Program-made: the position numbers and the translations under genes | Shown here: in pieces, positions 13,901-50,976 of the stretch | Numbering within the stretch: position 1 is the stretch's first letter | How the letters are laid out: every line of letters begins with the position of its first letter | The notes under the pieces: generated by a model | Told to the model about the DNA's origin: nothing | The model's database searches: none | The model's input: the letters and a program-made list of their open reading frames with translations, nothing else | Source: a virus | Virus record (IMG/VR): IMGVR_UViG_3300032235_000715 | Coordinates: 4,234 to 68,233 of that record | DNA: 64,000 nucleotides | Reading direction: 5' to 3' (one strand)

Positions 13901-13939
13901 ACTAGAACTACTCCATTAAAATACTCCAATTACCTATAA
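1952..13939 (+). CDS. gp7: Very large baseplate wedge initiator/structural protein (gp7-like, 3995 aa) with a YHYH-type domain and repeated beta modules
   Basis: Lies between gp6 and gp8; QLPAYVREEFP start; FYSTRGTDLSFKILF; HSPIIGWSYDGNPIYGPYG; repeated H-x-F-x-x-G-[DE]-x-V-x-Y and G-x-G-Y modules. Confidence 0.75.
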   Translation: MTEKRIQFNNIIQNQLPAYVREEFPLVAEFLKQYYISQEFQGASTDLIQNIDQYLKLDNIKANIEVTTLTANITFADETIPVLSTVGFPDSYGLLQIDDEIITYTGRTATSFTGCIRGFSGITSLSDQNKPDELVFESSESADHSNKNSDQTDKKVINLSYLFLEEFFNKIKYQLTPGFEKREFYSGLDKYLFLKQSKDFYSTRGTDLSFKILFNVLYGEDVKIIRPQDYLIKPSDAHYEITNDLVVESISGSPYDLERSTLYQDAYGDITKGYVPISRVEKIFTDSSKEYYKLSFDAGYNRDINVNGSLYGNFSIHPKTKLIGDVISGTNTLDVDSTVGFPSAGELSVLYNDGTESIISYTSKSLNQFFGCKNITKTILDKTDIWLNVFAYGTSNKNSNEIIKVRITSVLNKINIVDDSYYYNAEDTAIIRTLGVNPSDESVSNNWFFNISPSIDVLSISDRGNQTYQLITKIDHNLRIGDEINLTISDGTKRSSTVSNIISSDIVEINGQGALDISRFYSIQRNLLKVNSQKYSYLSNQITNVQNVYKIDNKTLVSSPSLPSYNKQPLETYNRTVEFKGVFQNTEISGYPGFTDLINLNVDHGFYTGDSVYYTPSSGDDSLFEEGIYFIQRVNPTTVRFSKSRANLYKSIFVRFNSFIELKNNSKLEDSDFNLKKLDSQKLLREIIHPINEGIQYQTTPGPVGILINGVEILNYKSKDTIYYGSVEKIDVINPGSDYDVINPPTLVISDSVGTGATGYCSVKGSLREIRIIDSGFDYLETPKINISGGNGIGAKASASMKLIDHQLSFNSESKSAFVSITNNTIGFSTFHKFRNAEKVVYRTNAQTAVGGIVTNSSYYVSIEDLYTIKLHKTFDDALVGVNTVVLTSYGTGNHILESYNKKSVISSINIESNGSNYENKKRTVNSSGISTSLGYVNIKSHDFKSGEIVTYSTDGTVIGGLSNNTNYYVTKVDEENFKLSLVGVGTDNQDFYYKTNQQIQFNSTGSGTHTFNYPQIVVEVVGNIGVSTSFKAVVQPIFRGEITSIHLNDNGVGYGSSEIINFNRIPNATLNSGADAQLVPIINDGKIVEVLINNPGRNYNSPPNLNILTNNEGVGAILTPIIENGQIKSIKIVESGGGYNPNSTFITVSAAGTKAELNPVLKSWTVNLFAKYFNKFADDDGFIFYNSNSKYGLQYAHLYTPRKLRENVYAKEIGGKTLYGKYDLIKSNNNEVSSTNHSPIIGWSYDGNPIYGPYGLLNNGSISRMKSGYILNLATDRPPFPSGFFVEDYEYQNVDDESVLDEYNGRFCVTPDFPNGTYAYFTTIDGTSSSSFGGYRLPVFPYIIGNKFKSTPNQFNFDRKSNQDDIDLNKTDWSRNTTPYNLLKKYTSYSYLQLPNDLDQTIDVKYASPGVIENIGIVTGGINYKVNDKIIFDEEETSGFGFAAKVSRIGGKTVNSVSVASTTVYNLEIYPLEGSKNSFIAQSDLPHNFINVDIVSISGLNTTSSLIGGSYTIGVSTNTLSVSSPSGIGSVGVTGIVTFISVSGNLSHLSVRENDVYKIGNEKIKVLNVDKNSSRIRVLRSIDGTVGSAHSYTNVLYETSRRFSINVGNTTSYGYSVNKEFYFNPKESLGVGTVFGVGIGTTLSFSSPGIGASQIFIPTKTIYIPNHNLQTGDVLTYSTNIGTSISVSKDGITSSPLADQSVVYVAKISNDLIGISTVKVGLGTTGTFVGIASTTSSFSTLYFTGIGTGTYHSFKTNYPKLTAQASKNIVTVSTAQTHGITNNDYVFVNVNPGITTSIIVKYDDYNRKVLINPRSFVSGDINISSNSITVLNHNFENGQKVVYTSSSPSGGLVNNKIYYVVVFDKNTIKLSPSYYSATNLIPEIINITSASSGTLSPVNPPIKLYKESTAIFDLSDSSLSYLNGSVRYSAFELNFYIDSNYTQIFDKSFSSKTFEVIKTGIVGVDANAKVSLTVNDNIPQKLYYKLDPVYNSTLPLTKKEVNVDTSVIANNEMQVVYSGYNGEHRVTSTSSTSFTYNLDKTPESLSYSSSSKLNYETTSLSALGSVSKINITSNGQQYTTLPKFSEINSTYGTGAILEASSKSIGNIKKTKLNNIGFDFSCDFTVRPNLIFPQILKIEPLNSIDYIGINSRGRGYLTAPKLVVLDGKSREVLPELDLKYSLTDNYVTILNNTYRLNDITPIIVPTQNSNGVGIKSVSYNSTSKDVTIELSVGFSTSSSFPFAINDNVLIENISVGIASAAKGFNSENYNYQLFTVTSIDPNIGGYGSITYNLGNFLESGETPGTYDNVNSSGRIIPEKYFPKFNVVLKPNDFFENERVRYPNESISLGYVENWNKETKYLKVSSREILKEGNVIEGVSSKTQGIIFSTIKSTGFIDVGSYSKSENGWITETGVLNNELQKIQDNFYYQLFSYSLKSKVPYDTWENAVGSLNHTAGFKKFSDYQLESFGYSGISTDAASVLDTNADIIGFASLNCVYDFDLARENALVLGSKTYSDEITFSSRILTDYFESVGNRVLSIDNISDQFNSNPRSTRFSIVHRFFLSDARAQKYITYVKDQRYTSERQLMLFTLLHDNNMGYLNQYGRVESVYDLGSFDFSINGNEGLILFYPIKYRVNDYQVTTLSYNLKDSLVGVGSTTIGDIVSVNTNTIFVSSGPTTIISIGSTYTSSKILVEVSANNDQYQFNELNLIHDGTNIELLDYGQLTNHSTDAYSSSGLGTYYPYFSGSDLKIDFIPNVGIAASISTIQVAISNTSITGIGTFDIKYARFEARSTSIASTTSPTASIVAEYPEKYDGGYYVVQVSDITNNRHQLSEVIVLDDENEVYITEFGNIETHSGLGTIGAVKTINSTRLTFTPLANIDTQVKVYFNSLANFDEINTSTQYNNNTATSDYNVYYGTERDVKRSFELKHQGNPIFQRYFDASDSSTVSIGSSTIRIQNHFFVTGEKVSYSSGTPTAISSPIGIASTDFGVGIGTTDKLPSSVYIIKVDENNIKLARSVSDALRAAPKILNITSVGIGTRHVFTSLKQNTKTLVSIDNVIQSPVVSTSLTSYLSTNVLSVDDLIYIDSTEGLISGDLIRIDNEIMKIEAIGIGSTNSIRVARPWLGTNLTSHSIGTSITKVTGNYNIVENTINFVEAPYGNIPIGTSTNPPDERDWVGITSSSSFHGRVFMRSGVTDSSNESYYKNHIFDDISSRFTGSQKTFTLTSNGSNISDMYEDNAVVLINEIFQEPGLTNNYTLSESVGVTSISFVGSATSQSSDTNTSNLPSGGIIVSVGSTKGFGYQPLVSAGGTAIVSVAGTISSISIGNSGSGYRSSIQTLSGIATVTVRVGVATSSTGTPNIEFIGTAAVSRGNIVSIAITNPGIGYTTSNPPYVIIDAPLSYSDIPLIYSSSSSGIGTRATIDVIVGQGSSVIEFEIKNTGYGYEIGDILTIPVGGATGIPTTPNSTIKEFQISVDNVDRDKFSGWSIGELEAFDNIQILFDGKRVIFPLTYNGTTTSVYAKRGSLINIQDVLLVFVNDILQVPGEGYIFKGGSKIQFTEPPKSEDTCKIIFYKGSGDGVDVIFRDVIDTVKIGDDLQLTYDSFIGQSPSLLEDERKVVDILSIETVETNPYFGPGNTGNETLSRPLIWCRQTEDLIINEKEVAKNREFYEPFIYPSTHIIQSVGVGTSIIYVENLRPFFNPLNENNISLEFQNNITLISQDTKVSASATAIVSVAGTISSINILDGGSGYDSAPIVTIQNPIGIGSTTSTAISFITSGIVTSISITGVVTGYSSMNPPVVLIEPPTIDIESNKVASYEGDFGIISGISTVSVGVASTGIVFDFFIPQNSPLREGMISGITTISGIQTNYYFVVSNSNVGNGVTSLDSLRKIVGSGKSFLDGVYQVSSVSIAQTSVVGLGITYVAKVIVSVSGYNGLSGIGYSNYYGNFSWGRIKLKSRTKSESYNAYTNSGYSGISTGTLVTRTTPLKYSNYL

Positions 13940-15535: not shown

Positions 15536-18500
15536 ATGTCTCAAGTCACAAACCTCAATGTATCGCCATATTTTGACGATTTTGATGCAAATAATGACTA
15601 TCATAAAGTTCTTTTTAAGCCTGGATATCCAATTCAAGCAAGAGAACTGACCACTTTACAAACTATTCTACAAAATCAAGTAGAAAAATTTGGTCAGCAC
15701 TTTTTCAAAGAAGGTGCAAAAGTTATTCCGGGAAATACTTCATATAATCAATTTTACTATGCCGTAGAATTAAACAATACTTATTTGGGAGTTCCTTTAG
15801 ATGCTTATGTAGAGCAACTTGTTGGATCAAAGATTACCGGACAAACTTCAGGAATTACTGCAGTTGTAGAAAAGGTATTACTGTCTACAGACTCCGAAAG
15901 AGGAAACGTTACTTTATATGTAAACTATTTGAGTTCTAGTACTCAAAATAATTCAACAGTTCAGTTTTTAGATGGCGAAAGTATCTCTTCAAATGTCACT
16001 ATTACTTCTGGTCTGTTAGGAAACACCTCCATTTCTGCAGGAACTCCATTTGGTATTACTGTTACTAGCAATGCAACTTCAATTGGTTCAGCATTCTCAA
16101 TTACGGAAGGGGTTTATTTTATTAGAGGATACTTTGTAACTGTAAATACAGAGACTCTTATCTTAGACCAATATTCAAATACTCCAAATTATAGAGTTGG
16201 GTTATTTGTAAATGAGGAAATTATTAATTCTGATATTGATGAGACACTAAATGATAATTCTCAGGGATTTAACAATTATGCTGCTCCAGGTGCAGACAGA
16301 TTAAAAATTTCGGTTTCACTATTCAAAAAAGATCTGAACGATTTTAATGATAATAATTTTATCGAGTTAGCATCTATTGTAGATGGAGTAATAAAAACAG
16401 TTAGAACTCCTAAAGAATATAATTTAATTCAAGACGAATTAGCAAGAAGAACGTATGCAGAATCTGGAGATTATTATGTAACACCTTTTGATTTAAATAT
16501 CAAAGAGTCTCTGAATGATGGAGTAGGGAATAGAGGTATATTTAATACTGGACAATTTACTTATGGCGGTTCAACACCATCGGAAAATCTTGCCATTTAT
16601 CAGATTTCTCCAGGTAAAGCATTTGTAAGGGGATATGAAGTAGAAACTGTTTCGCCAGTCTTATTAGATTCTGAAAAACCAAGAACTGTCGCAACTCTTA
16701 ATGATCTTTCAATCAATTATAACACGGGATCATCACTCACACTAAACCGAGTATTTGGTTCTCCCCTTATTGGAATAGGAAATACTTACGTTTTAAGTTT
16801 AAGAGATTCTAGAGTTGGTACAGCATCAACAATAGCAGCAGGAAAAGAAATTGGTGTCGCAAGAGTTTATGATTTTAGATTAGAATCTGGATCGTATGAT
16901 ACAACAAATTCAGATTTAAACCAATGGAATATTTCTCTTTATGATGTTCAAACAACAACTGAAGTCACATTAAATCAACCAATTACACTTTCTGTTCCTA
17001 CTTTTATTAAGGGCAAAAATAGTGGCGCAACTGCTTTCTTAAAAAATTCAGTAACTAATAGTGCATCAATTGTTCTTTATCAAAAAAATGGCGAATTCAT
17101 TCCAAATGAATCATTTATTATTGATGGAATCAATAATAATAGAGTTGCAATAGCAATTACTTCATATGGAATTACTGATATAAAATCTGTCCACGGTATT
17201 GTAGGATCTGCAACAACTTTTAATGCAGATACAGTTCAATCTGATTATTTCAATGTAGGAATTGCTACTATTAGTGCTTCAAGTGGTGGCATTAGTACAA
17301 TTACCAGTTCAAATGAAAACTTCCCAGGTAAAATAGTTAAATCTGGCAATCTTGTTAGATTTAGTAATGGATCATCTTCTTTACCAGTATATGCAAGTGT
17401 AGTAAGCGTAGGAAAAACAACAATTTCAATTTCCGGTGTTGCTACGGTAACTGGTATTAATCAGGGTGGTTTACCAACATCACTTCTAAATGTTTCTGAT
17501 TTGAAAATTTTAGGAACTAAATTATCTAAATCTACAGATGATACTTTATATACAGTTTTACCTAGACCAAATATATCTTCAGTAGACTTAACTAATGCAT
17601 CTTTAACCATCAGAAAGACTTTTAATGTAACTATCGCTGATAATCAATTATCAACACCAGTTACTGCTGGAGAAAATGAAACCTTCTTACCTTTTGATGA
17701 AGAAAGATACACTTTAATGAGATCTGATGGAAGAACAGAGGTTCTTACTTCGGACAAATTTGATTTTATTAATGGATCAACTCAAATTCAAATTTATAAT
17801 TTGGGTTCTAATGGAAGCGCGACACTTGTTGCAACTTTAAGAAAGATTAAACCAAAATCAAAAATCAAGTTAAAAAATAGAGTTAATTCTATTCTTGTTG
17901 ATAAATCCAAGTACGAAGCATCTGGACTTGGCGCAACTACTCTGAACGATGGACTTACTTATGGAAATTATCCATATGGAACAAGAGTTCAAGACGAAAG
18001 CATTTCACTCAATGTTCCAGATATTGTTAATGTTTATGGCGTTTATGAATCAAGGACAACTGCAGATCCATCAGCACCTACTTTTGTTCTTTCTTCAATA
18101 AACGGTCCAACAACTAAAACCACCGATTTAATCATTGGTGAGCAATTTGTTGGTCAGTTAAGTGGTGCAATTGGTGTATATGCAGAAAGATTAACAGATT
18201 CTCAAATTTCGTTTATTCCATTAAATGAAAATACCTTCAAGGAAGGGGAAACGATTACTTTCGCAGAATCTAATATTCAAGCAATTATTACAACTATTGA
18301 TGCTTCTAGTTCCAGTATTTCATCAAACTTTAAGTTTGATAATGGACAAAAAGGATCCTTCTATGGATATGGTGCAATCAATAGAGTACCTTCATCACCA
18401 GAACCTTCTAAAAAAATAAAAGTATATTTTGCCAGTGGTTATTATCAAGGTTCAGACAATGGCGATATTACAACAGTAGAGTCTTATCGTGGTTTTGATT

Positions 18501-21500
18501 ATAAGAAAGACATTCAAATTATAAACTCAGTAAGAAACTCTGATATGATTGATATCAGACCAAGAGTTTCTCCTTATACAGTAGCGGTAAATTCGAGATC
18601 ACCACTTGAATTTTATGGAAGACTTTTTAATGGATCAGGAAATTCGTCGGCAAATATTTTAGCATCTGATGAGTCCATTGTTACTACATTTTCATATTAT
18701 CTCGGAAGAATTGATAGAATCTATGTACGTAAAGATGGAACATTCCAGGTTAAGTATGGAGTTCCTTCCGAAAAACCAGAAAAACCTGTTAATGTTGAGG
18801 ATGCACTGGAAATTGCAACTGTAACTTTACCTCCATATCTTTTTGATATATCTCAAGCTTCTGTTCAATTCCTTGAGCATAAGAGATATAGAATGGTTGA
18901 TATCAAACAACTTGAAAATAGAATTAAAAATCTTGAGTATTATACTGCATTATCAACCCTCGAATCAAGCACTGCAAACTTATTTGTTCCCGATTCAAGT
19001 GGATTAGATAGATTTAAATCTGGATTCTTTGTTGATAATTTTAGTTCATTAAATTCACAAGAAAGTGGTGTACCATTTGAAAATAGTATTGATCCTAAAA
19101 ATAAAGAACTAAGACCAAAACACTACACTACTGCCATTGATTTAATTGCAGGTCCTGTGGAAGGAGTAGATTCTCAAGCAGACCTTGCATTTGAAGCACC
19201 AGAAGGAAATAACATAAGAAAAACTGGAGATTTGATCACTCTTGATTATGCAGAAGTCGAATGGTTAAAGCAAATTTTTGCAACTAGAACTGAAAGTGTG
19301 ACCCCATTTATTATTAGTTTCTGGCAAGGAACTGTTGAACTTACTCCAGCAACAGATACTTGGATTGATACTGTAAGATTAGATGCAAAAATTATTAACG
19401 TTGAAGGAAATTATGCCCAAACAATGGCTCTTGCTCAACAACAATTCAATGTAGATCCACAAACTGGTTATTCACCAACCGTTTGGGGTGCTTGGGAAAC
19501 TAATTGGACTGGCAAAGAAGTTATTGAAACTGTTAAAACCAGAACAGATACTTCTTATAATTATGGATATTATGGAAATTGGTGGTGGGGATGGCCTTAT
19601 GGGTATGGTTATGGATATTGGGGGCACTATGGATATTATGGGTGGCGTAGAGGATATACAACAACTACAGTTACTCAAGATAATTACAGAGAAGTAAAAG
19701 AAACTGGCGTCCAATCAAGAACTGGCACAACAACTTTCGTTTCTGAACAGTTTGATAAAGAATCAATTGGAGATAAAGTTGTAAGCAGAGATCTGGTTCA
19801 ATATTTAAGGTCAAGAAACATTCAATTTGTTGCTAAAAATGTAAAACCATTAACTCAAATTTATGCATTCTTTGATGGCGTAGATGTAACTAAGTACTGT
19901 ACACCAAAACTATTAGAAATCACTATGGTTTCTGGTGTATTTGCAGTTGGTGAAACTGTTATTGGTACAATTCAAAAAACAGGTCTAAATGTAACTGTAA
20001 TTAACGAAAGTGATCCGCGAATTACATTTAGAATTGCGCAATCAAATCACAAAGAAGGTCCATATAATGTCCCATCATCAACATATCCTCTAAATCCGTA
20101 TACAAGTCAAACTCTCCCTGCAACATATTCTTCTACAAGCACTATTTTAAATGTAGACACATTTTCACTGTGTGCTCAATATCAAGGAGAATTTAGTGGT
20201 TGGGTTCAATCGGGAATGACTCTAGTTGGAAAAACAAGTGGTGCTCGTGCAACTATTGCTAATGTAAGACTAATTTCTGATGTTTATACCTCCTTAATTG
20301 GTAGTTTCTATATTCCAAATCCAAACATATCCGTAAATCCAAGATTTGAAAATGGTTCAAAAACCTTTACATTGATAAACAGTATTATCAATGATAGAAA
20401 TCTTGCTTCTACAGTATCTGAGGAAAAATTTATTTCAAGTGGAACTATTGAAACTGTTCAAGAAAATATTATTTCCACTAGAAATGCAAGGATTGAGCAA
20501 AAACAAGATCTTCAGCAGAATAATGTTTCCAGAACTACTGGAGCTCAATTAGTAAGTAGTAATGTTATTTCAAAAACAACTAATTGGAATAGATGTCCTT
20601 GGTGGGATCCTCTTGCACAATCATTCTTAGTCCAGGAAGAAAGTGGTATTTTCCTCACAAAATGTGATATTTTCTTCAAAACAAAGGATGATGCAGAAGT
20701 TCCAGTATTGTTCCAAATAAGAACAATGCAGGGAGGATACCCCACACAGACTGTTCTTCCATTCTCTGAGATTACGTTAGAACCTGATCAAGTTAATATT
20801 TCTAATGATGGATCTGTTCCGACTTCGTTTGTATTTAAATCACCAGTTTATCTAGAAGGCGGAAAGGAATATTCAATTGTTATTGGATCAAATTCAAACA
20901 AATATAATGTTTTTATCTCCAGATCTGGTGAAGTTGATATTCTCACACAGTCATATGTAAACCAACCTTATCTTGGATCACTATTCAAATCACAAAATGC
21001 ATCAACCTGGGAACCAAGTCAGTGGGAAGATTTGAAGTTTACCCTCTATAGGGCAGATTTCTTAACTTCTGGTAGTGTAGAGTTCTATAGTCCAGAATTA
21101 TCACTAGGAAATTCTCAAGTTCCAACATTATTACCAAATTCTCTTAATCTTAATTCAAGAAAAGTTAGAATTGGATTATCAAGTGCATTAAGTGATAATA
21201 ATCTAACCTTAGGAAATACAGTTCTCCAACAAGGGACTAATGCAACTGGCAATTATGTAGGAAATGCTGGAATCGCCACGGGAACACTTCAAGTTATTAA
21301 TGCTGGTATCGGTTACACTCCATCCTCTGGTAGTTTAACATTTAGTGGAGTTGATTTAGTAACAGTTACTGGAAGTGGTAGAAATGCAAAAGCAAATATT
21401 ACAATTTCAAACGGAGTTGCAATAGCAGCTACAGTTTCTGTGTCGGGAAATGGATATCAAGTTGGTGATGTGCTTGGCATTTCTACTTTAGGCGCATCTT

Positions 21501-23068
21501 CTGTTGGTAGAGATGCTCTGTTCTCTCTTGTTTCTATAGCAAGTACAAATGAACTTGTTCTAGATAATGTACAAGGTGATTTCTCAATTGCTGGAACTGG
21601 TAAAACAGTACAATACATTAATAATTCGGGATTAACAACCACTTTAAATTCAACTTCAGGTGGAAATGTACAAATTTCGGATATTAATGTAGAAAGCGAT
21701 GGTTTACATATCGTTGTAAATCATAAGAACCACGGAATGTATTTTAATGACAACTATGTAAGAATTTCTGGTGTAGAATCAGATGTACCACCAACTAAAT
21801 TAACCGTAGATTACTTATTGGAGAATACTATAACTGTTGAGAATAGCTCTAATTTCTCAACCTTCGAAGGAGTTGGTGTAGGAACAACTAATCCAGGTTA
21901 CGCATTAATTGGCAATAGATTATTTGAATATACTTCTGTCGAAAGCGGAGTTCTTAATGATGTAACTAATCTTGGATACATTGACCCAGTATTTACTAAT
22001 AATTTGTTGATTCAGTGTATTATACCATATCAAGCAGGAACTCCTGTTTACAAGTATGAATTGGGTGGAGTCTCTTTAAAAAGAATCAATGCTACGCATT
22101 ATCTTGCAAATACAAGTGTTACTGATCCAATATCATTTGATTCATACAACATTAAGGTTCAAATGGACTTGAATGGAATTGATCGATCTAATGGATCTAG
22201 TTTCCCCAAACTATACTTAAATCAAACTAAGTCTGCTGGTGGATTCAATACAAAAGCAACCCAAAATATACCATTTGAATTGATGACTCCTTCAGTGCAA
22301 AATATTACTGTACAAGGGACTACAATTAATGCAGAGGTTAGAACAATTACTGGATCAAGTATTAGTGGCAACGAAATTCCTTTTGTAAATAGTGGATTTG
22401 AACCAGTTACAATAAACAAAACTAACTATTTTACAACTCCAAGAATTATTGCATCCAAGATAAATGAAGATGCTAAGTTGGGATCATTGATGGGTAAAAA
22501 GTCTATGAATTTAAGACTTTTCTTAAATTCAGTAGATTCGAGAGTAAGTCCAGTTATTGATACTCAAAGAGTTAATGTAGTATTAACTTCAAATAGAATC
22601 AATAAGGTAATTACTAATTATGCGACTGATAATAGAGTGAATACAATTGGAACTGACCCATCATCATTCCAATATATCTCTAAAGAAATTGGTTTAGAAA
22701 ATCCAGCTACTTCTATTAAAATTCTATTAGATGCTCACATTAATAATTACTGTGATATAAGAGCATTTTACGCAATTGGCGAAAATCAAAACTTTATACC
22801 TATTTTTACACCTTATCCAGGATATAATAATCTTGATGCTAGAAAACAAATCATAAACTTTGAGAATAGTAATGGACTTCCTGATGTATTTGTTCAACCA
22901 TCACTGTCCTTTGGATTTGAAACTAACAATATTGATTTTAGAGAATATAGTTTTACTGCCGACCAATTGCCTTCATTCAGATTCTATAGAATTAAATTAG
23001 TTCTTACATCGACGAATCAAGTTTATCCACCAAGAATTAGAAACCTAAGAGTCATTGCATTAGCATAA
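15536..23068 (+). CDS. Large virion structural protein, VrlC/DUF4815-like (2510 aa)
   Basis: NLNVSPYFDDFD...KVLFKPGYPIQARELTTLQ, APGADRLKI, DRFKSGFFVDNF, DPLAQSF motifs; follows gp8 as in cyanophages. Confidence 0.85.
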   Translation: MSQVTNLNVSPYFDDFDANNDYHKVLFKPGYPIQARELTTLQTILQNQVEKFGQHFFKEGAKVIPGNTSYNQFYYAVELNNTYLGVPLDAYVEQLVGSKITGQTSGITAVVEKVLLSTDSERGNVTLYVNYLSSSTQNNSTVQFLDGESISSNVTITSGLLGNTSISAGTPFGITVTSNATSIGSAFSITEGVYFIRGYFVTVNTETLILDQYSNTPNYRVGLFVNEEIINSDIDETLNDNSQGFNNYAAPGADRLKISVSLFKKDLNDFNDNNFIELASIVDGVIKTVRTPKEYNLIQDELARRTYAESGDYYVTPFDLNIKESLNDGVGNRGIFNTGQFTYGGSTPSENLAIYQISPGKAFVRGYEVETVSPVLLDSEKPRTVATLNDLSINYNTGSSLTLNRVFGSPLIGIGNTYVLSLRDSRVGTASTIAAGKEIGVARVYDFRLESGSYDTTNSDLNQWNISLYDVQTTTEVTLNQPITLSVPTFIKGKNSGATAFLKNSVTNSASIVLYQKNGEFIPNESFIIDGINNNRVAIAITSYGITDIKSVHGIVGSATTFNADTVQSDYFNVGIATISASSGGISTITSSNENFPGKIVKSGNLVRFSNGSSSLPVYASVVSVGKTTISISGVATVTGINQGGLPTSLLNVSDLKILGTKLSKSTDDTLYTVLPRPNISSVDLTNASLTIRKTFNVTIADNQLSTPVTAGENETFLPFDEERYTLMRSDGRTEVLTSDKFDFINGSTQIQIYNLGSNGSATLVATLRKIKPKSKIKLKNRVNSILVDKSKYEASGLGATTLNDGLTYGNYPYGTRVQDESISLNVPDIVNVYGVYESRTTADPSAPTFVLSSINGPTTKTTDLIIGEQFVGQLSGAIGVYAERLTDSQISFIPLNENTFKEGETITFAESNIQAIITTIDASSSSISSNFKFDNGQKGSFYGYGAINRVPSSPEPSKKIKVYFASGYYQGSDNGDITTVESYRGFDYKKDIQIINSVRNSDMIDIRPRVSPYTVAVNSRSPLEFYGRLFNGSGNSSANILASDESIVTTFSYYLGRIDRIYVRKDGTFQVKYGVPSEKPEKPVNVEDALEIATVTLPPYLFDISQASVQFLEHKRYRMVDIKQLENRIKNLEYYTALSTLESSTANLFVPDSSGLDRFKSGFFVDNFSSLNSQESGVPFENSIDPKNKELRPKHYTTAIDLIAGPVEGVDSQADLAFEAPEGNNIRKTGDLITLDYAEVEWLKQIFATRTESVTPFIISFWQGTVELTPATDTWIDTVRLDAKIINVEGNYAQTMALAQQQFNVDPQTGYSPTVWGAWETNWTGKEVIETVKTRTDTSYNYGYYGNWWWGWPYGYGYGYWGHYGYYGWRRGYTTTTVTQDNYREVKETGVQSRTGTTTFVSEQFDKESIGDKVVSRDLVQYLRSRNIQFVAKNVKPLTQIYAFFDGVDVTKYCTPKLLEITMVSGVFAVGETVIGTIQKTGLNVTVINESDPRITFRIAQSNHKEGPYNVPSSTYPLNPYTSQTLPATYSSTSTILNVDTFSLCAQYQGEFSGWVQSGMTLVGKTSGARATIANVRLISDVYTSLIGSFYIPNPNISVNPRFENGSKTFTLINSIINDRNLASTVSEEKFISSGTIETVQENIISTRNARIEQKQDLQQNNVSRTTGAQLVSSNVISKTTNWNRCPWWDPLAQSFLVQEESGIFLTKCDIFFKTKDDAEVPVLFQIRTMQGGYPTQTVLPFSEITLEPDQVNISNDGSVPTSFVFKSPVYLEGGKEYSIVIGSNSNKYNVFISRSGEVDILTQSYVNQPYLGSLFKSQNASTWEPSQWEDLKFTLYRADFLTSGSVEFYSPELSLGNSQVPTLLPNSLNLNSRKVRIGLSSALSDNNLTLGNTVLQQGTNATGNYVGNAGIATGTLQVINAGIGYTPSSGSLTFSGVDLVTVTGSGRNAKANITISNGVAIAATVSVSGNGYQVGDVLGISTLGASSVGRDALFSLVSIASTNELVLDNVQGDFSIAGTGKTVQYINNSGLTTTLNSTSGGNVQISDINVESDGLHIVVNHKNHGMYFNDNYVRISGVESDVPPTKLTVDYLLENTITVENSSNFSTFEGVGVGTTNPGYALIGNRLFEYTSVESGVLNDVTNLGYIDPVFTNNLLIQCIIPYQAGTPVYKYELGGVSLKRINATHYLANTSVTDPISFDSYNIKVQMDLNGIDRSNGSSFPKLYLNQTKSAGGFNTKATQNIPFELMTPSVQNITVQGTTINAEVRTITGSSISGNEIPFVNSGFEPVTINKTNYFTTPRIIASKINEDAKLGSLMGKKSMNLRLFLNSVDSRVSPVIDTQRVNVVLTSNRINKVITNYATDNRVNTIGTDPSSFQYISKEIGLENPATSIKILLDAHINNYCDIRAFYAIGENQNFIPIFTPYPGYNNLDARKQIINFENSNGLPDVFVQPSLSFGFETNNIDFREYSFTADQLPSFRFYRIKLVLTSTNQVYPPRIRNLRVIALA

Positions 23069-41440: not shown

Positions 41441-41461
41441 GTCTTTCTCACATATTTTCAG

Positions 41462-44402: not shown

Positions 44403-44431
44403 ATTCTATCGAAGTTTAGATACCTTGTCAA
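44403..44431 (-). promoter_or_regulatory. Divergent (antisense) sigma70-type promoter
   Basis: Minus strand reads TTGACA-17 nt-TAGAAT and overlaps the plus-strand -35 element. Confidence 0.55.
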
Positions 44432-44453
44432 GTATTTGCATAAGTGCTATAAT
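44425..44453 (+). promoter_or_regulatory. Sigma70-type promoter for the gp55-gp47-gp46 operon
   Basis: TTGTCA-17 nt-TATAAT with a TG extended -10. Confidence 0.75.
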
Positions 44454-44477: not shown

Positions 44478-44975
44478 ATGATAACCACAGCAGTTATGAC
44501 CAAGAGAAAAAGGTCAGAGCATTACGTCAATAATAAAGAGTTTCTTGCTGCACTGATTAAATACCGTGAAGATAAAGAGATTGCGGTATTGCAGAACAAA
44601 CCAAAACCTCCCATCCCACGCTATATTGGAGAGTGTTTTCTGAAGATTGCTAATCACTTATCGTTTAAACCAAACTTCGTAAACTACATGTTTAAGGAAG
44701 ATATGATTTCTGATGGTATTGAAAACTGTGTTCAGTATATTCATAACTTCAATCCTGAGAAGTCACAAAACCCTTTTGCATACTTCACTCAAATCATTCA
44801 TTACGCTTTCCTCCGCAGAATCCAAAGAGAGAAGCGTCAATTGGAAATCAAAAACAAAATCCTTGAGCGTTCTGGGTACTCTGAAGTGTTTGCAGATGAT
44901 AATTCAGTTGACGGTGGCAATTATTCCGATTATAATTCTATTAAGGACGGAGTTCACAGCAAACTGCGATATTGA
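44478..44975 (+). CDS. gp55: Late-transcription sigma factor gp55
   Basis: HYVNNKEFL, PNFVNYMFKEDMISDGIENC, NPFAYFTQIIHYAFLRRI. Confidence 0.97.
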   Translation: MITTAVMTKRKRSEHYVNNKEFLAALIKYREDKEIAVLQNKPKPPIPRYIGECFLKIANHLSFKPNFVNYMFKEDMISDGIENCVQYIHNFNPEKSQNPFAYFTQIIHYAFLRRIQREKRQLEIKNKILERSGYSEVFADDNSVDGGNYSDYNSIKDGVHSKLRY

Positions 44976-46016
44976 ATGAAAGTAGCAATTATTACAGACC
45001 AGCACTTTGGAGCAAGAAAGAATTCTAAACTCTTTCACGATTATTTCCTAAAGTTCTATAACGACGTATTTTTCCCAACGCTCGAAGAGTATGGGATTAC
45101 TACTGTTGTGGATATGGGAGATACTTTTGATAGTCGTAAAGGAATTGATTTCTCTGCTCTATCGTGGGCTAAAAGTAATTATTATGACCGTCTCCAAGAA
45201 ATGGGTGTAAATGTTCATACAATTGTAGGAAATCATACTGCATATTATAAGAATACTAATAATGTAAACGCAGTAGATCTTCTTCTGCGTGAATATAATA
45301 ACGTAACAGTTTATTCTGAACCAACTGAAGTGATGTTGGGTCAACTACCTATACTTTTTATTCCGTGGATCAATCAAGAAAATGAAGAAAAAACTCTTAA
45401 ACTTATTGAAAAGACAACTTGCTCGTGCGCGATGGGGCATCTTGAACTCCAAGGATTTAGAGTTAATAAACAAATCGTCATGGAGCATGGTTTGGAGGGC
45501 AAACTATTTGGTAAGTTCACCAAAGTCTACTCGGGACACTATCACACTAGATCGAATGATGGAACAGTTTTCTATCTAGGAAATCCATATGAGATTTATT
45601 GGACTGATGTAGGTGATACTCGTGGTTTCTCGATTTTTGACACTGAAACAATAACTCATGAGTATGTAAATAACCCTTACAAAATGTTCTATAATATTTA
45701 CTATGAAGATACCAATCATCAAACTTTTGATGCTCGCGAGTATGAGAATAAAATTGTAAAAATTGTTGTTCGAAAGAAAACCGATACCAAAAAGTTTGAA
45801 AAGTTTGTTGACAAACTCTATGCTTCAAATATTGCAGAACTCAAGATTATTGAAAACTTTGATATTCAGGAACCTCAAAACTTTGAAGCATTTGAAAGTG
45901 AGGATACTATTTCTATCTTGAATAGATATATTGAGGAGGCAGAAATTAATCTTGATAAATCTATTATTCAAAAGATGATGCAAGAAATATATCAAGAAGC
46001 TTGCGAACTAGTTTAA
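44976..46016 (+). CDS. gp47: Recombination endonuclease subunit gp47 (Mre11/SbcD-like)
   Basis: ITDQHFG, MGDTFD, VGNH, SGHYH metallophosphoesterase motifs. Confidence 0.96.
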   Translation: MKVAIITDQHFGARKNSKLFHDYFLKFYNDVFFPTLEEYGITTVVDMGDTFDSRKGIDFSALSWAKSNYYDRLQEMGVNVHTIVGNHTAYYKNTNNVNAVDLLLREYNNVTVYSEPTEVMLGQLPILFIPWINQENEEKTLKLIEKTTCSCAMGHLELQGFRVNKQIVMEHGLEGKLFGKFTKVYSGHYHTRSNDGTVFYLGNPYEIYWTDVGDTRGFSIFDTETITHEYVNNPYKMFYNIYYEDTNHQTFDAREYENKIVKIVVRKKTDTKKFEKFVDKLYASNIAELKIIENFDIQEPQNFEAFESEDTISILNRYIEEAEINLDKSIIQKMMQEIYQEACELV

Positions 46017-46289
46017 ATGTTTATTCTAACAATCAATGGTAGAGAAACTGAAGGTGCTTATTCTGTAGTTGATGATGAAGGCGAACATATTCTATATCTC
46101 TTTCAAGAAGAAGATGATGCGACTCGATATGCTATGATGTTAGAAGAAGATGGATATCCAGAAATGCATGTAATTGAAATTGAAGATGAAGTAATGATAA
46201 AAACCTGCGACTTGCATGGTTATCAATATACAATTATTACACCTGATGATATTGTAATTCCACCAGATACTGATTATGATTTTATTTAA
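46017..46289 (+). CDS. DUF3110-like small acidic protein
   Basis: LYLFQEEDDATRYAMML resembles the cyanobacterial DUF3110 motif (recalled, not searched). Confidence 0.6.
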   Translation: MFILTINGRETEGAYSVVDDEGEHILYLFQEEDDATRYAMMLEEDGYPEMHVIEIEDEVMIKTCDLHGYQYTIITPDDIVIPPDTDYDFI

Positions 46290-47988
46290 AAAAATAAGAT
46301 TTAAAAACTTTCTTTCTACTGGAAATCAATATACAGAAATTGATTTTACTAAAAGTAGTACCAATTTGATTGTTGGCAATAACGGCGCTGGGAAAAGCAC
46401 TCTTTTAGATGCTTTATGCTTTTCTTTGTATGGACGTGGGTTTAGGAAGATTAATAAACCACAACTTATCAATTCGGTAAATGAGAAGGATTGTAGGGTT
46501 GAGGTTGAATTTTCTATTGGAAATATTGAATGGAAAATTGCAAGAGGAATTAAACCGTCTATATTTGAAGTTTATAGAAATGGTTCTGTACTAGATCAAT
46601 CTGCTGCTGCATTGGATCAGCAAAAATGGATAGAGCAGAATGTGATTAAAATGAATTATAAAAGTTTTACTCAAATCGTAATTTTAGGTTCAAGTACTTT
46701 TGTTCCTTTTATGCAACTTTCTACTACTCATCGTAGAGAAGTGATTGAAGATTTGCTTGATATTAAAATTTTTTCTTCGATGAATATGGTAATCAAGGAG
46801 AAGATTCGTCAGTCAAAAGAAGAAATTAAAGTTCTTGGCCTAAAGAAAGAATCCCTTCTTGATAAAGTTAAGATGCAGCAGAGTTTTATTGAAGAACTTG
46901 AAAATAGGGGGAAGAAAGATATTGATAATAATAATCGTAAAATTTCCGATTTGGATAAAGAAATCGAACATCATTTAAACGAAAATACTTGTCTAGAGGA
47001 ACCTCTTAGGGAATATATTAAAGAACAGGATAATCTAATAGGATATGCAGATAAACTTCGTAAGTTGGGAAACTTGAAAGGTAAGATCTCGCAAAAAGTA
47101 TCTACCATTACTAAAGAACACAAATTTTTTACAGAGAATACTGTTTGCCCTACTTGTACACAGTCAATTGAAGAGACCTTTAGAATAAATAGAATTACTG
47201 ACGCTCAAAATAAAGCAAAGGAGTTGCAATCTGGTTATAAAGAACTAGAGGAGGCAATTAAAGAGGAAGAGGAGCGAGAGCGTCAATTCAACGCTCTATC
47301 GAAGGAGATTTCAAAACTAACGAATGGCATTTCTCAAAACAATATTAAGATTAACGGATTACAAAAGCAAATCCGAAATCTTGAACATGAAATTCAAGTT
47401 CTTACCGAGAACCTTGCAAACAGAAATACTGAACATGGAAAGTTAGAATCCTTCAAAGACAATCTAAAAACTACATACGACGACCTCGCTTCTAAAAAAG
47501 ACACAATCAACTATTACGATTTTTCATATAGTTTGCTTAAAGACGGTGGAGTAAAATCCAAAATCATTAAGAAGTATCTACCGCTGATAAATCAGCAAGT
47601 TAACCGTTATCTTCAGATGATGGATTTCTATATTAACTTCACTCTTGATGAGGAGTTTAACGAAACCGTCCAGTCGCCAATTCACGAAGATTTTTCTTAT
47701 GCTTCTTTTAGTGAAGGAGAAAAAATGAGAATTGACCTCGCACTACTCTTTACTTGGAGAGAAGTTGCAAGAATGAAAAACTCAGTCAACACCAACCTTC
47801 TTATTATGGATGAAGTGTTTGATAGTTCTCTTGATGGATTTGGAACTGAAGAATTTTTGAAAATCATTCGTTATGTTATTAAAGATGCAAATATTTTTGT
47901 CATTTCTCACAAGACGGGACTAGAAGATAGATTCGAGAGTGTTATTAAATTTGAAAAAGTAAAAGGATTTAGTAGGATCGTTGTATGA
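46276..47988 (+). CDS. gp46: Recombination ATPase subunit gp46 (Rad50/SbcC-like)
   Basis: GNNGAGKST, zinc hook CPTC, signature FSEGEKMRIDL, LLIMDEVFD, ISHK. Confidence 0.97.
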   Translation: MILFKKIRFKNFLSTGNQYTEIDFTKSSTNLIVGNNGAGKSTLLDALCFSLYGRGFRKINKPQLINSVNEKDCRVEVEFSIGNIEWKIARGIKPSIFEVYRNGSVLDQSAAALDQQKWIEQNVIKMNYKSFTQIVILGSSTFVPFMQLSTTHRREVIEDLLDIKIFSSMNMVIKEKIRQSKEEIKVLGLKKESLLDKVKMQQSFIEELENRGKKDIDNNNRKISDLDKEIEHHLNENTCLEEPLREYIKEQDNLIGYADKLRKLGNLKGKISQKVSTITKEHKFFTENTVCPTCTQSIEETFRINRITDAQNKAKELQSGYKELEEAIKEEEERERQFNALSKEISKLTNGISQNNIKINGLQKQIRNLEHEIQVLTENLANRNTEHGKLESFKDNLKTTYDDLASKKDTINYYDFSYSLLKDGGVKSKIIKKYLPLINQQVNRYLQMMDFYINFTLDEEFNETVQSPIHEDFSYASFSEGEKMRIDLALLFTWREVARMKNSVNTNLLIMDEVFDSSLDGFGTEEFLKIIRYVIKDANIFVISHKTGLEDRFESVIKFEKVKGFSRIVV

Positions 47989-48773
47989 TTGGAATCGTTG
48001 GAAATGGTTTTGTTGGCAATGCAGTGTATCAAAATCTAAGGGATAAAGTTTCCTGTAAAGTCTTTGATGTAGATAAAAATAAATCTCTTAATACTTTAGA
48101 AGAAGTATTGCGACAAAAATTTATTTTTGTTTGCTTACCTACTCCTATGAGGTCAACTGGAGAGTGTGACACTTTCATTCTAGAAAAGTTTTTTTCAAAT
48201 CTCCCTTCCTTCATTGAAGGGACATTTGTTATTAAATCTACAGTTCCTATCGGCACAACAAAGAAGTTTGCACAAAAATATAATGTTATTCATAATCCAG
48301 AATTTCTTACTGCGCGAAATGCCGTAGAGGATTTTAGAAATTCTGAAAGAAATGTGGTTGGCGGAAATCGAAATCTATGTAATCAATTCGTCGAATTCTT
48401 TAGTGAAATTTTTCCAACGATTCCGAGTGTAATCACTACTTCTGACGAAAGTGAGGCAATAAAGTATTTTGCAAATAGTTTTCTTGCCTGCAAAGTTGCA
48501 TACTTCAATAAAATGTATGACCTTTGCCAATCAGTTGGAATGAATTATGAAACTGTCTGTTCAGGTGTAACCTCAGACAGTAGAATTGGAACATCACATA
48601 CTCAAGTTCCTGGTATTGATAATGATCGTGGTTTTGGTGGAACTTGTTTCCCCAAAGATTTAAATTCTCTTATAAATCAGATGGAGGCGCACGGTATCGA
48701 CGCTGGTATGCTAAAATCTGTATGGTCTTACAATCAGCAAATTCGCACGGTCATCGATTGGTCCGTAACCTAA
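47985..48773 (+). CDS. UDP-glucose/GDP-mannose dehydrogenase family protein (short form)
   Basis: GIVGNGFVG Rossmann motif, FVCLPTP, IKSTVPIGTT, NPEFL, catalytic GFGGTCFPKD. Confidence 0.88.
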   Translation: MIGIVGNGFVGNAVYQNLRDKVSCKVFDVDKNKSLNTLEEVLRQKFIFVCLPTPMRSTGECDTFILEKFFSNLPSFIEGTFVIKSTVPIGTTKKFAQKYNVIHNPEFLTARNAVEDFRNSERNVVGGNRNLCNQFVEFFSEIFPTIPSVITTSDESEAIKYFANSFLACKVAYFNKMYDLCQSVGMNYETVCSGVTSDSRIGTSHTQVPGIDNDRGFGGTCFPKDLNSLINQMEAHGIDAGMLKSVWSYNQQIRTVIDWSVT

Positions 48774-48774
48774 A

Positions 48775-48921
48775 ATGAACACTCCAAATTGGCAGCATCA
48801 TTCTAAGAAACAGCAAAAACGAAAATTAAAACCGCAAGCACTTCGACAAGCAAAAGCGCGAAGGCAAGCATTCAAGAAGCGTCTTAATTCTATAGACGCT
48901 TCTTTTTTTATAAATAACTAA
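48775..48921 (+). CDS. Small basic protein (48 aa); not in the ORF track
   Basis: Hand-translated MNTPNWQHHSKKQQKRKLKPQALRQAKARRQAFKKRLNSIDASFFINN; starts 1 nt after the upstream stop codon. Confidence 0.65.
   Translation: MNTPNWQHHSKKQQKRKLKPQALRQAKARRQAFKKRLNSIDASFFINN
48874..48909 (+). terminator. Intrinsic terminator lying inside the 48775 ORF
   Basis: AAGAAGCGTCT-9 nt loop-AGACGCTTCTT perfect 11-bp stem plus T-tract. Confidence 0.85.
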
Positions 48922-48938
48922 AAAAGTATTTGTAACAA

Positions 48939-50228
48939 ATGGAACCAAAAGAATTAGTTGGACTTTATGAAGCCTATCAACAGATTTATGAACCTCAAGA
49001 ACTGACCGAGGAAGTAGAAATTGCTACTGAATATTTCTATGAAATGGGTTTAAATGAGAATGGAATTGATATTCTTATTGAAGAACTTGGAGAAGAAGAA
49101 TTTGTTAATTGGGTATATGATATTTCTGAAGAATATACTCTGAGTGAGGCGAGAGCAGGTGGAGTAAGAGTAGAACCAGTAACAAAAACTGGCAAGTCAA
49201 TTGGATCTCTGAAAGGTGGTGCTAGAACTTCTGCTATTAGATCTAGACAAAAAGAAAAGGCAGCAAGAAAGGAAGCAGAAACATCTGCATCAGCAGCAAA
49301 ACCATCGGGAATGACTGCTGCTCTTAGAAGTCAAGCAGCATATTCTGCTACTCAAAAACAAACACCTACTAAGAAACAAACATCATCTCCGCAGCAAACT
49401 AAAAAAGGCATTGGTGGATTGATTGGATCTATTGTACAAAGAGCAAAACAAGATACTGAACTTCTTGGTAAATCAATTCAGACTGCAAGAGATGTTGCAT
49501 CACGTAGAGGTGCTGAAGTTGCGGCGGGTTATGGTGCATTAAGAGCAAAAGGCAGAGAAGCAGAAAAATCTGCAGCAGCAACCAGAGCAAGAAGAGTTGC
49601 AACTGTTGCAACTGGTAGAGCAGCACAGGCAGCTGGAAGAACTGCTATTAAGGCAGCGGGCGCTGCAGGTGCTGCTGCAGGAGCTGGAGTTACTGCCAGA
49701 AGAGGGGGAGCAACGCCAGCACAAACTGCTGGTAGAGTTGCGGGAACTTTTGTTCGCAAAATGACTAGAGAAGAATATAATTATATTCTTGAGCATCTTC
49801 TTGATGAGGGGTATGCAAATAGCATTGAAAATGCCGAAAAGATTGTAATGAACATGAGTGAGCAGTGGTTAGAAAGTATTGTTGGGGAACTTCTAGATGA
49901 GGCAGATATTATGTCTGTTCACAGAAAACCAAGTAAAACTGATAAAGGTGGTATGGTTTATATGAAAAATCCTAATATAATAAGATTGCAAAATGCTGCT
50001 GGCAGAGAAAGACAAGGAAGACAAGAAAGAGAAAAAGAATCAAAAAATAGAGAAAATGCTGCACGATATGACCAAGCACTAAGGAAAGGAATTAATAGAG
50101 CAACTAATAGAAGTGAACCTCAAGATCAGTATGCTGGTTATGGTGAGATAGAAGCACTTTCTCCTCGTGCTGATGGTGGAGCACATTCTGGTAGAAAACG
50201 TCTTGCAAGAAGAGCATCTGGTAGATAA
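48939..50228 (+). CDS. Hypothetical protein, probable packaged internal head protein with alternating acidic and basic Ala/Arg-rich blocks
   Basis: Late promoter TATAAATA at 48909-48916; L-x-E sites (LTE, LSE, LDE) flank the basic segments. Confidence 0.65.
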   Translation: MEPKELVGLYEAYQQIYEPQELTEEVEIATEYFYEMGLNENGIDILIEELGEEEFVNWVYDISEEYTLSEARAGGVRVEPVTKTGKSIGSLKGGARTSAIRSRQKEKAARKEAETSASAAKPSGMTAALRSQAAYSATQKQTPTKKQTSSPQQTKKGIGGLIGSIVQRAKQDTELLGKSIQTARDVASRRGAEVAAGYGALRAKGREAEKSAAATRARRVATVATGRAAQAAGRTAIKAAGAAGAAAGAGVTARRGGATPAQTAGRVAGTFVRKMTREEYNYILEHLLDEGYANSIENAEKIVMNMSEQWLESIVGELLDEADIMSVHRKPSKTDKGGMVYMKNPNIIRLQNAAGRERQGRQEREKESKNRENAARYDQALRKGINRATNRSEPQDQYAGYGEIEALSPRADGGAHSGRKRLARRASGR

Positions 50229-50248: not shown

Positions 50249-50284
50249 AACCACTCATTTACCAGTGAGTGGTTTTTATAAATA
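50249..50284 (+). terminator. Terminator hairpin fused to a late promoter
   Basis: AACCACTCA-8 nt-TGAGTGGTT plus TTT, running into TATAAATA at 50277-50284. Confidence 0.7.
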
Positions 50285-50298
50285 ATAGTGTATAGTGC

Positions 50299-50976
50299 AT
50301 GACCAAAATGAATAATCAATATTATACTTATGCTTGGTTGAGAGAAGATATGACTCCTTATTACATTGGAAAAGGTATTCGTGATAGAGCATATCGTCCT
50401 CATAGGAGAGGTAATACTTATATGTCTGCTCCACCGAAAGAAAGAGTTTTATTTCTAAAGAAAAATTTAACAGAATTTGATGCTTATAAACACGAAAACT
50501 ATATTATTAGTATTTTAGGATTAAAAAGTGAAGGTGGTATATTAATTAATATGTCCTATGGTGGTGAAGGAAGTTCTGGAAGAAAACCAAGTCAATATTG
50601 CATCCAAAGAACAAAAGAAACTAATATTGGAAAAATTCTTAATGAGGAACATAAAAAATCAATTTCTAAACAAGTATCTCAGAGAAGATGGTGGAATAAT
50701 GGAGAAGTGGATAAACATACTATTGAATGTCCTGGCGAAGGATGGGTTCTTGGTAGATTGTATAATGTAAAAAGTGAAAAATATAAAACAAAAGAATTTT
50801 CTGAAAAATCTAGAAAAAATAATCTTGGTAAAAATGTTAGCGACGAAACAAGAAAGAAACAAAGTAAAGTGAGAAAAGGAAGAAGATGGTGGAATAATGG
50901 AGAAAAAACTAAGTTGTCTTATGAATGTCCTGGAGATGGTTGGGTACTGGGAAGACCTGGACACTTGATAAACTGA
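50299..50976 (+). mobile_element. Free-standing GIY-YIG-family homing endonuclease with tandem C-terminal DNA-binding repeats
   Basis: YYTYAWLRED..PYYIGKG..R, E..I and LINMSYGGEG catalytic-domain motifs; duplicated RRWWNNGE...ECPGxGWVLGR units. Confidence 0.8.
50683..50904 (+). repeat. Internal 198-bp-period direct repeat in the endonuclease gene
   Basis: AGAAGATGGTGGAATAATGGAGAA is identical at 50683-50706 and 50881-50904. Confidence 0.85.

Follow-up and report, generated by a model that had tools for sequence, protein, structure and literature searches.

A 48-codon gene for a small basic peptide, found in a 64,000-nucleotide stretch of virus DNA (IMG/VR record IMGVR_UViG_3300032235_000715, positions 4,234 to 68,233; hereafter the window), carries the hairpin and T run of an intrinsic terminator within its own reading frame, ahead of its stop codon. 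This micro-gene is conserved in hundreds of cyanobacterial T4-like viruses. Across the family the arrangement, which is like that of the bacterial genes arfA and brfA, is real and strongly enriched, though not universal. To our knowledge, genes deliberately expressed from stopless messages are known from two bacterial ribosome-rescue factors; here the arfA/brfA non-stop layout occurs in an unrelated phage peptide. The features in question are the following.

48775-48921, + strand: micro-gene of 48 codons (phrog_3309 match, codon-position test, alignment)
Zones within the micro-gene: residues 1-37, conserved basic peptide; codons 34-44, doubling as the hairpin
48874-48909, + strand: intrinsic-terminator-like hairpin and 7-T run, within the micro-gene's open reading frame (sequence, folding)
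48909-48916, + strand: TATAAATA, T4-type late-promoter motif of the next gene (motif scan)

The micro-ORF and its embedded hairpin

An earlier sequence-only reading of the window had claimed a micro-ORF (ORF, open reading frame) with a perfect 11-bp hairpin and a T tract ahead of its TAA. That claim is confirmed, down to the exact protein sequence quoted: as read from the window sequence, the ORF encodes 48 amino acids (aa) on the + strand, from the ATG at 48775 to the TAA at 48919-48921. The hairpin pairs a left arm (AAGAAGCGTCT, 48874-48884) with a right arm (AGACGCTTCTT, 48894-48904) perfectly over 11 bp across a 9-nt loop (48885-48893), and seven consecutive T's occupy 48903-48909. Most of the left arm is made up of codons 34-37 (AAG AAG CGT CTT), and the first base of the stop lies 14 nt past the stem end and 9 nt past the T run. 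With a G+C-containing 11-bp stem and then directly seven T's, the element has the form of an intrinsic (Rho-independent) terminator. The 66-nt hairpin stretch folds at -16.4 kcal/mol as compared with -6.8 +/- 2.0 kcal/mol for 200 shuffles (z -4.7), none of which equalled it. A simple terminator scan had missed the hairpin because its loop limit was 8 nt and the loop here is 9 nt. Canonical terminators found by that scan nearby, at 41460, 53549 and 54732, all start beyond the stop of the preceding ORF.

The end of the reading frame is shared with the control elements that follow. Codons 45-48 and the stop fall within the T run and the late-promoter motif; TATAAATA stands directly after the T run, supplies codons 46-47 and lies 23 nt ahead of the ATG at 48939, and the last codons (I N N stop) are the promoter motif plus the bases following it, read in frame. 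Intrinsic termination usually frees the RNA within the U run, and therefore a terminated transcript would end at about codon 44-45, without a stop.

Terminator and stop codon across the family

The parsing covered the ORF, its stop and the best hairpin followed by a T-rich tail at 133 unique loci, drawn from the window, four isolates and the IMG/VR relatives of three types of query; 26 duplicates and 13 loci too close to a contig end were excluded. A hairpin with such a tail was present at 127 of the 133 loci, compared with 86 of 1000 control windows, each of 100 nt, taken at these loci. The 127 hairpins start at nt 98-120 of the ORF. The stop lies beyond the stem end in every one of the hairpin-bearing loci (127/127), by 3-368 nt with a median of 17.

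These hairpins fall into two classes. In class 1 (68 loci, the window and S-SRM01 included) the left arm is formed by the KKRL codons, and all 68 loci have 6-9 T's per 11 nt in the T tract. The motif NATAAATA follows within 20 nt of the stem in 61 of the 68, with the next ATG mostly 19-22 nt further on. This motif has been reported upstream of cyanomyovirus late genes (PMC2984593). The hairpin of class 2 (59 loci, P-SSM2-like) is unrelated, rich in G+C and placed at codons 39-41, and a conserved box follows it in 47 of the 59 loci; the class-2 tail enters the beginning of the next gene, 'peptidase' T4-GC146, in a different frame.

Among 70 distinct hairpin sequences, called by a finder that demands pairing, many stem positions are changed on both sides, and the loops differ freely in length and sequence. 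RNAalifold on MAFFT alignments returned no structure for either class; loop-length differences had misaligned the right arms, and stem pairs were therefore counted from our own hairpin calls. Past the hairpin the reading frame is at the mercy of small changes. A single extra T in the T run turns the tail FL-stop into FFINI-stop, the right arm is read in another frame in a few proteins (P0071, P0104, P0120), the tail after the hairpin runs from 0 to more than 30 codons, and in 16 of the 127 loci the stop is the TAA within TATAAATA. Read from these sequences, the order of constraint appears to be protein-level to about residue 37, then RNA-level, with the remainder unconstrained.

The sequence-only reading had proposed, as checks, that C-termini should diverge past the hairpin and that a terminator should always fall in frame before the stop. 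The divergence was found in both large clades. The in-frame terminator held at all 127 hairpin-bearing loci, which make up the two large clades, and failed elsewhere in the family, where an ordinary stop is found in 35 of 234 unique ORFs, three of which carry it in the terminator loop. The ground for refutation named in that reading, homologues with stops before the hairpin, thus applies in part.

Enrichment, exceptions and the case for compaction

How unusual the arrangement is can be seen from a further 1,809 ORFs, each 60 aa or longer, taken from the same DNA in all frames and hence including some spurious ones. A strong hairpin with a T tract stands near the stop in 130 of them, and the stop falls before the stem in 102, inside it in 8 and after it in 20. 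The numbers of stops after, as against inside or before, the stem are therefore 188 vs about 6 for the micro-gene and 20 vs 110 for the control ORFs. Across 113 distinct hairpins, stop triplets occur in the +1 frame in 8, in the +2 frame in 17 and in the frame of the ORF in none, a count that is partly circular since an in-frame stop would recategorise the sequence, yet none occurs within any stop-after cluster; 22 of the out-of-frame stop triplets touch hairpin loops. By reading, the layout is kept through several mutually unalignable hairpin types that start at nt 89-126 of the ORF. The hairpin is under RNA-level selection and is located at the operon end and the start of a new promoter.

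The exceptions came from an exhaustive search, which returned divergent members ending 2-8 residues past the conserved part. DNA was retrieved for two divergent groups, and all sequences pooled gave 234 unique ORFs, which were clustered at 85% identity over an 84-nt core into 77 clusters. The category counts below are approximate by a few, as a 7-pair threshold misfiles L112, L304 and L305 (as 'no hairpin') and L248 (as 'ordinary stop').

Stop beyond the stem: 188 of 234 unique ORFs
Ordinary stop, no hairpin within about 130 nt: 29 of 234 unique ORFs
Stop inside or before the hairpin: 6 of 234 unique ORFs
At least 100 aa, long or fused: 11 of 234 unique ORFs
Stop-after only: 43 of 77 clusters
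Ordinary stop only: 22 of 77 clusters
Stop inside or before the hairpin only: 5 of 77 clusters
Long forms only: 3 of 77 clusters
Mixed: 4 of 77 clusters, none combining stop-after with stop-inside

Members with ordinary stops are 38-57 aa long and mostly operon-internal, some overlapping the next start; S-SM2, with an ordinary stop at 45 aa and no hairpin, is one isolate of this kind. In L248, L253 and L255 the left arm is still coding and the stop is placed in the terminator loop. At L322, L325, L374, L383 and L384, the DNA right after the ordinary-stop micro-ORF looks by eye like tRNA genes.

These exceptions bear on a plain explanation by genome compaction, in which an ordinary small protein has a terminator built from its A/G-rich last codons whenever its gene is operon-final, the stop has drifted downstream harmlessly, and leaky termination or a few non-stop messages are tolerated. 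Since the operon-internal members have ordinary stops, the layout would on this account track position and not function. The stop is also supplied by whatever follows, be it the TAA in TATAAATA or the next gene read out of frame, and the 20 control ORFs out of 130 that likewise stop after the stem show that the arrangement arises elsewhere. Against compaction, the ratio in the family is the reverse of that in the control ORFs. The stops in the loop in L248, L253 and L255 mean that the normal compact solution was open to the micro-gene and works in three lineages, yet it is found in none of the 113 distinct hairpins of the stop-after clades. The layout has also survived a change among several unalignable hairpin types. 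On balance we regard incidental compaction as somewhat unlikely. If it were true, it would show the tolerance of a compact phage genome for non-stop messages.

A protein-coding gene under selection

The micro-protein belongs to PHROG 3309 (E 2.9e-16, 60.7 bits; residues 1-38 aligned with positions 1-39 of the 42-position profile), a family with no assigned function and, in the sources searched, no remark on a terminator overlap. The description of the gene as unannotated in the sequence-only reading is right for P-SSM2 (NC_006883) and S-SRM01, which carry no annotation for it, and wrong in so far as the PHROG match and a coding sequence (CDS) in S-SM2 exist. The S-SM2 CDS (L002:1505-1642, 45 aa) is labelled 'gp5: baseplate hub + tail lysozyme', an annotation that looks wrong.

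Relatives are numerous. At least 577 stretches among 600 IMG/VR candidates match, as do 399 protein clusters, and blastn matches 106 phage records, all of them cyanophages or marine single-cell viruses by name. An exhaustive search with a profile hidden Markov model gave 144 clusters (50% identity), nearly all of 33-121 aa, which match at the extreme N-terminus, and ESM Atlas yielded unnamed clusters of the same kind only. Among prokaryotes, with one genome per species searched, three matches were obtained, all on contigs of metagenome-assembled genomes with no cyanobacterial label; one of these (L247) is by reading a different protein, and a host homologue was not seen. From these matches the family looks phage-only.

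The micro-gene is real and under protein-level selection. In 64 unique sequences, the entropies at codon positions 1, 2 and 3 are 0.26, 0.12 and 0.78, respectively, and differences from the consensus comprise 418 synonymous and 126 non-synonymous codon changes, when single changes would allow 69 and 255. The 30 nt on the 5' side of the gene are unconserved (entropy 1.53), and conservation begins precisely at the ATG. That the conserved entity is an RNA or DNA element and no protein gene is hardly credible. Such an element would fit the blastn result, in which the first 80 nt or so of the ORF are 74-85% conserved between genera and the flanks are unmatched, and it would fit the almost invariant synonymous sites of codons 17-32 in class 1, but the plain three-base periodicity, the big synonymous excess and the onset of conservation right at the ATG argue against it. 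The matches in an Rfam search were all below threshold, with nothing near any gathering score.

The class-1 region just mentioned (window 48823-48870) is a curious one. Its almost invariant synonymous sites are those of codons 17, 19, 22, 24-26, 28, 31 and 32, and CAAGCA is present in it three times, while third positions vary freely in codons 2-16. The constraint, maybe a second one at the nucleic-acid level, was not found in class 2, and we did not adopt a second RNA element at codons 17-32, class 2 being without it.

The peptide and the known ribosome-rescue factors

An AlphaFold2 model built on a 41-row alignment predicts coil for residues 1-19 and one helix for residues 20-46, with a mean predicted local distance difference test (pLDDT) score of 75. 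In the family alignment, the invariant or nearly invariant residues are confined to positions 1-35, except F44. As modelled, a coil and a long arginine- and lysine-rich helix would suit RNA or ribosome binding. The suggestion in the sequence-only reading, that the peptide might be a sensor of trans-translation capacity or a ribosome binder, is a reasonable hypothesis.

Similarity searches placed the peptide in no known group. Pfam gave no family except a chance FAM199X match (E 0.16), NCBIfam none at E up to 10, and PADLOC no relative. The sequence-only reading saw no similarity to ArfA, and this is borne out: ArfA (PF03889 in Pfam) did not match at E up to 1, and a search of every PDB chain sequence with a 41-member profile (E up to 10; ArfA, BrfA, ArfB and SmpB entries included) gave one chance match at E 0.68. 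Residues 29-35 (window 48859-48879) hold a conserved RRQALK or RRAALK, which adjoins a hydrophobic segment in fused forms of the protein. It resembles the twin-arginine (Tat) export motif; a Tat signal in the fused forms was dropped, no Tat model having matched in Pfam or NCBIfam.

The likeness to the rescue genes is one of size, charge and layout. The brfA gene (yqkK of Bacillus subtilis) is a small gene with a Rho-independent terminator of typical form inside its coding region, a few codons before the stop, and is expressed from non-stop mRNA (PMC6881298). In both genes an encoded tail is missing from the message, the 71 codons of brfA yielding about 62 aa (PMC6881298) and the 48 codons of the micro-gene a predicted 44-45 aa or so. 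In contrast with brfA, which is a host gene unrelated in sequence, the micro-gene is phage-borne and last in a long operon; its terminator is also the operon terminator and adjoins a late promoter, and some of its lineages have ordinary stops. The arfA gene of Escherichia coli is likewise expressed from non-stop mRNA through a hairpin inside its ORF, and its post-hairpin residues are poorly conserved (PMC8012679), as the post-hairpin tails of the micro-gene are unconstrained. It differs from the micro-gene in that the E. coli hairpin is mainly cut by RNase III, and, by reading of the alignment, no conserved KH motif was seen in the equivalent part of the micro-peptide.

One could suppose from this likeness that the peptide is an alternative ribosome-rescue factor of the phage, or some other binder of the empty mRNA channel, in the manner of ArfA and BrfA. 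The gene layout is the same, the product is a small and highly basic peptide with a predicted coil and one long helix, and its dissimilarity to the known factors is weak evidence when ArfA, BrfA and ArfT have no sequence similarity to one another (PMC8012679). Nevertheless, no relation to the solved chains of ArfA, BrfA, ArfB and SmpB or to Pfam and NCBIfam models was found, lineages with ordinary stops would express the peptide constitutively, and in several lineages the peptide is joined to a signal peptide that follows it, which sits poorly with a C-terminal tail that has to enter the ribosome. Such a role seems improbable. The stronger form of the idea, that the peptide is the first viral counterpart of the non-stop-encoded rescue factors, freeing ribosomes or blocking tmRNA-SmpB (tmRNA, transfer-messenger RNA), is a long shot. 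It would have the early peptide accumulate only when host trans-translation is overwhelmed, perhaps during phage degradation of host messages, and enter the empty mRNA channel of stalled ribosomes.

Proposed fate of the terminated message

What might the layout do? The reading that we tentatively prefer, at somewhat less than an even chance, is that the stopless nature of terminated messages is a working arrangement by which expression of the peptide is gated by trans-translation. The frame of the micro-gene would be kept open across the operon's intrinsic terminator and would end by accident only, in or past the late promoter belonging to the next gene. Messages that end at the hairpin, if it terminates, are therefore non-stop for the micro-ORF. 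A ribosome on such a message would reach the 3' end some 44-45 codons in and need rescue, tmRNA-SmpB would tag the product for degradation, and the peptide would be scarce unless trans-translation were saturated. Experiments have established this kind of control for arfA and brfA. In bacteria, ribosomes on non-stop messages are rescued mainly by tmRNA-SmpB with tagging of the product for degradation (PMC6881298, PMC8012679). We infer the end of transcription at the hairpin, the translation of those transcripts and the action of trans-translation on the product.

Several points weigh against such gating. The layout is not universal, with 29 + 6 of the 234 unique ORFs (22 + 5 pure clusters of 77) lacking it; therefore it is not required for the peptide to work, and an ordinary message suffices. 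The T tracts of class 2 are weak, with 5-6 T's per 11 nt in 41 of 59 loci, and class-2 hairpins may terminate poorly. An E. coli intrinsic terminator is repressed by a translating ribosome within about 27 nt (PMC4824070), and by analogy, with tight coupling, few transcripts might end at the hairpin. The use of conserved KKRL codons as a left arm could be plain genome compaction. The hairpin finder demands pairing, which biases pair counts towards structure, and the counts cover related, non-independent sequences in samples shaped by the choice of queries. Finally, the available RNA data are contigs only, which leave 48638-48927 uncovered, and no 3' ends were seen.

In a further explanation, the terminator itself is gated by the ribosome in the manner of the pyrBI leader. 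A ribosome close behind the polymerase would melt the left arm and allow read-through downstream, a lagging one would let the operon end, and non-stop messages would be a by-product and not the purpose. The pyrBI attenuator lies within a 135-bp gene for a leader peptide, a terminator within a short translated ORF where the position of the ribosome decides on the hairpin, and E. coli ribosomes repress terminators in or near translated frames (PMC4824070). The micro-gene agrees with this model in that its frame is open through every hairpin and the later position of the stop is free, as the model needs, and in that its start is tightly coupled to the upstream ORF. There are, on the other side, clear differences from pyrBI. 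The leader stands upstream of the genes it controls, whereas the micro-ORF stands at the operon end and its peptide is strongly conserved. The pyrBI leader peptide is not known to have a function of its own, and attenuator leader peptides are not usually conserved over 37 residues, in contrast with the micro-peptide, which is under strong purifying selection. In other members the peptide is also encoded by ordinary cistrons inside operons, ending at a normal stop, and no pause or regulatory codons were identified in the micro-ORF. Nor is read-through needed to express the next gene, which has a promoter motif of its own 19-22 nt ahead of the ATG. We consider ribosome gating unlikely as the purpose of the layout. 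It is compatible with gating by trans-translation, and both could hold: where the ribosome follows closely, transcription would read through and the peptide would end at its stop codon with a junk tail, and where it lags, transcription would terminate and leave a non-stop message.

Operon and late-promoter setting

Judged from gene order, the micro-gene is the final cistron of a gp55-gp47-gp46-(variable gene) operon, early or middle in type, whose genes lie head to tail. The operon and the gene downstream are laid out as follows.

44425-44453, + strand: candidate sigma-70-like promoter ahead of the operon (TTGTCA, 17 nt, TATAAT with TG; consensus match only, 11/12)
44478-44975, + strand: gp55-like late sigma factor, first gene of the operon (phrog_234, E 7.7e-68)
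44976-46016, + strand: gp47 (SbcD-like) recombination nuclease subunit (phrog_100, E 1.3e-117)
46017-46289, + strand: 90-aa protein (phrog_470, E 7.5e-31)
46276-47988, + strand: gp46 (SbcC-like) recombination nuclease subunit (phrog_77, E 7.5e-189)
47985-48773, + strand: UDP-glucose dehydrogenase-like gene (PF00984, E 6.4e-24; PF03721, E 3.6e-15; phrog_9148)
48939-50228, + strand: 429-aa late gene (phrog_3477)

The TAA of the UDP-glucose dehydrogenase-like gene ends 1 nt before the ATG of the micro-gene. At 61 of the 133 loci of the first set the ATG overlaps the upstream stop (-4 or -1 nt), and at 92 of the 133 the distance is 19 nt or less; from this spacing, the start of the micro-gene is probably coupled to the stop of the preceding gene. 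The slot between gp46 and the micro-gene varies, holding a 2OG-Fe(II) oxygenase in P-SSM2 and being empty in S-SM2 and S-SRM01 (slot also at L001:918-1505).

In the window, TATAAATA has five copies as compared with 7.4 expected, a number not above chance; all five are on the + strand, and four of them precede, by 15-39 nt, an ORF of 90 aa or more. Two RNA runs of a single study gave contigs starting at 48928 and 48940, with a contig depth of 20-42 over the downstream gene, and a third run covers the upstream genes thinly. The two contig starts hint, weakly at best, that a transcript begins after the late-promoter motif.

The 429-aa protein downstream is acidic in its N-terminal part, and its long middle is rich in Ala, Arg and Lys. 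Between its gene and the 'peptidase' lies a 225-aa ORF (50277-50976) with an N-terminus that is GIY-YIG-like by reading. This ORF matches a homing endonuclease weakly (phrog_314, E 2.8e-8) and has a TATAAATA copy of its own, 15 nt upstream. The + strand of the window also contains two very long ORFs, at 1952-13939 (3995 aa) and 15536-23068 (2510 aa).

Significance and natural variants

Cyanophages are among the most abundant viruses on Earth, and the peptide that has this layout is conserved in cyanophages of both marine and fresh waters. Should the layout be functional, early gene expression of the phage would be tied to the ribosome-rescue state of the host. In the available parts of the cyanophage and phage literature searched on non-stop messages, ribosome rescue and transcript ends, no such gene was found, nor was a link between cyanophage early expression and host ribosome rescue. 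Natural variants offer themselves for comparison: the isolates P-SSM2 and S-SRM01 have the layout, L248, L253 and L255 have the stop in the loop, and S-SM2 has an ordinary stop and no hairpin.

Divergent and fused members

A divergent member at L246:1440-1700 keeps the N-terminal MNTPNWQHHSKK and has a different middle. Canonical terminators flank this solitary gene on both sides, a promoter-like TATACT lies ahead of it, and its transcript would be about 150 nt long and stopless.

In the fused forms, the first 35 residues or so are in frame with a signal-peptide-like segment and a secreted-looking protein. Such fusions occur at L003:1501-2025 (S-RIM2) and at L166, L168-L170, L332, L335, L341, L348 and L355, and the partner is either histidine-rich or a glycine-zipper 2TM protein, the latter with a match to PF05433 (E 5.5e-5) that is just under the cut-off. 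Other phages have relatives of this glycine-zipper protein that lack the micro-peptide. The fusion gene of S-RIM2 follows gp32 and not gp46, and Met replaces the usual Leu at residue 23. It is labelled 'cAMP phosphodiesterase class-II precursor', a label that has no support in Pfam or NCBIfam and looks wrong.

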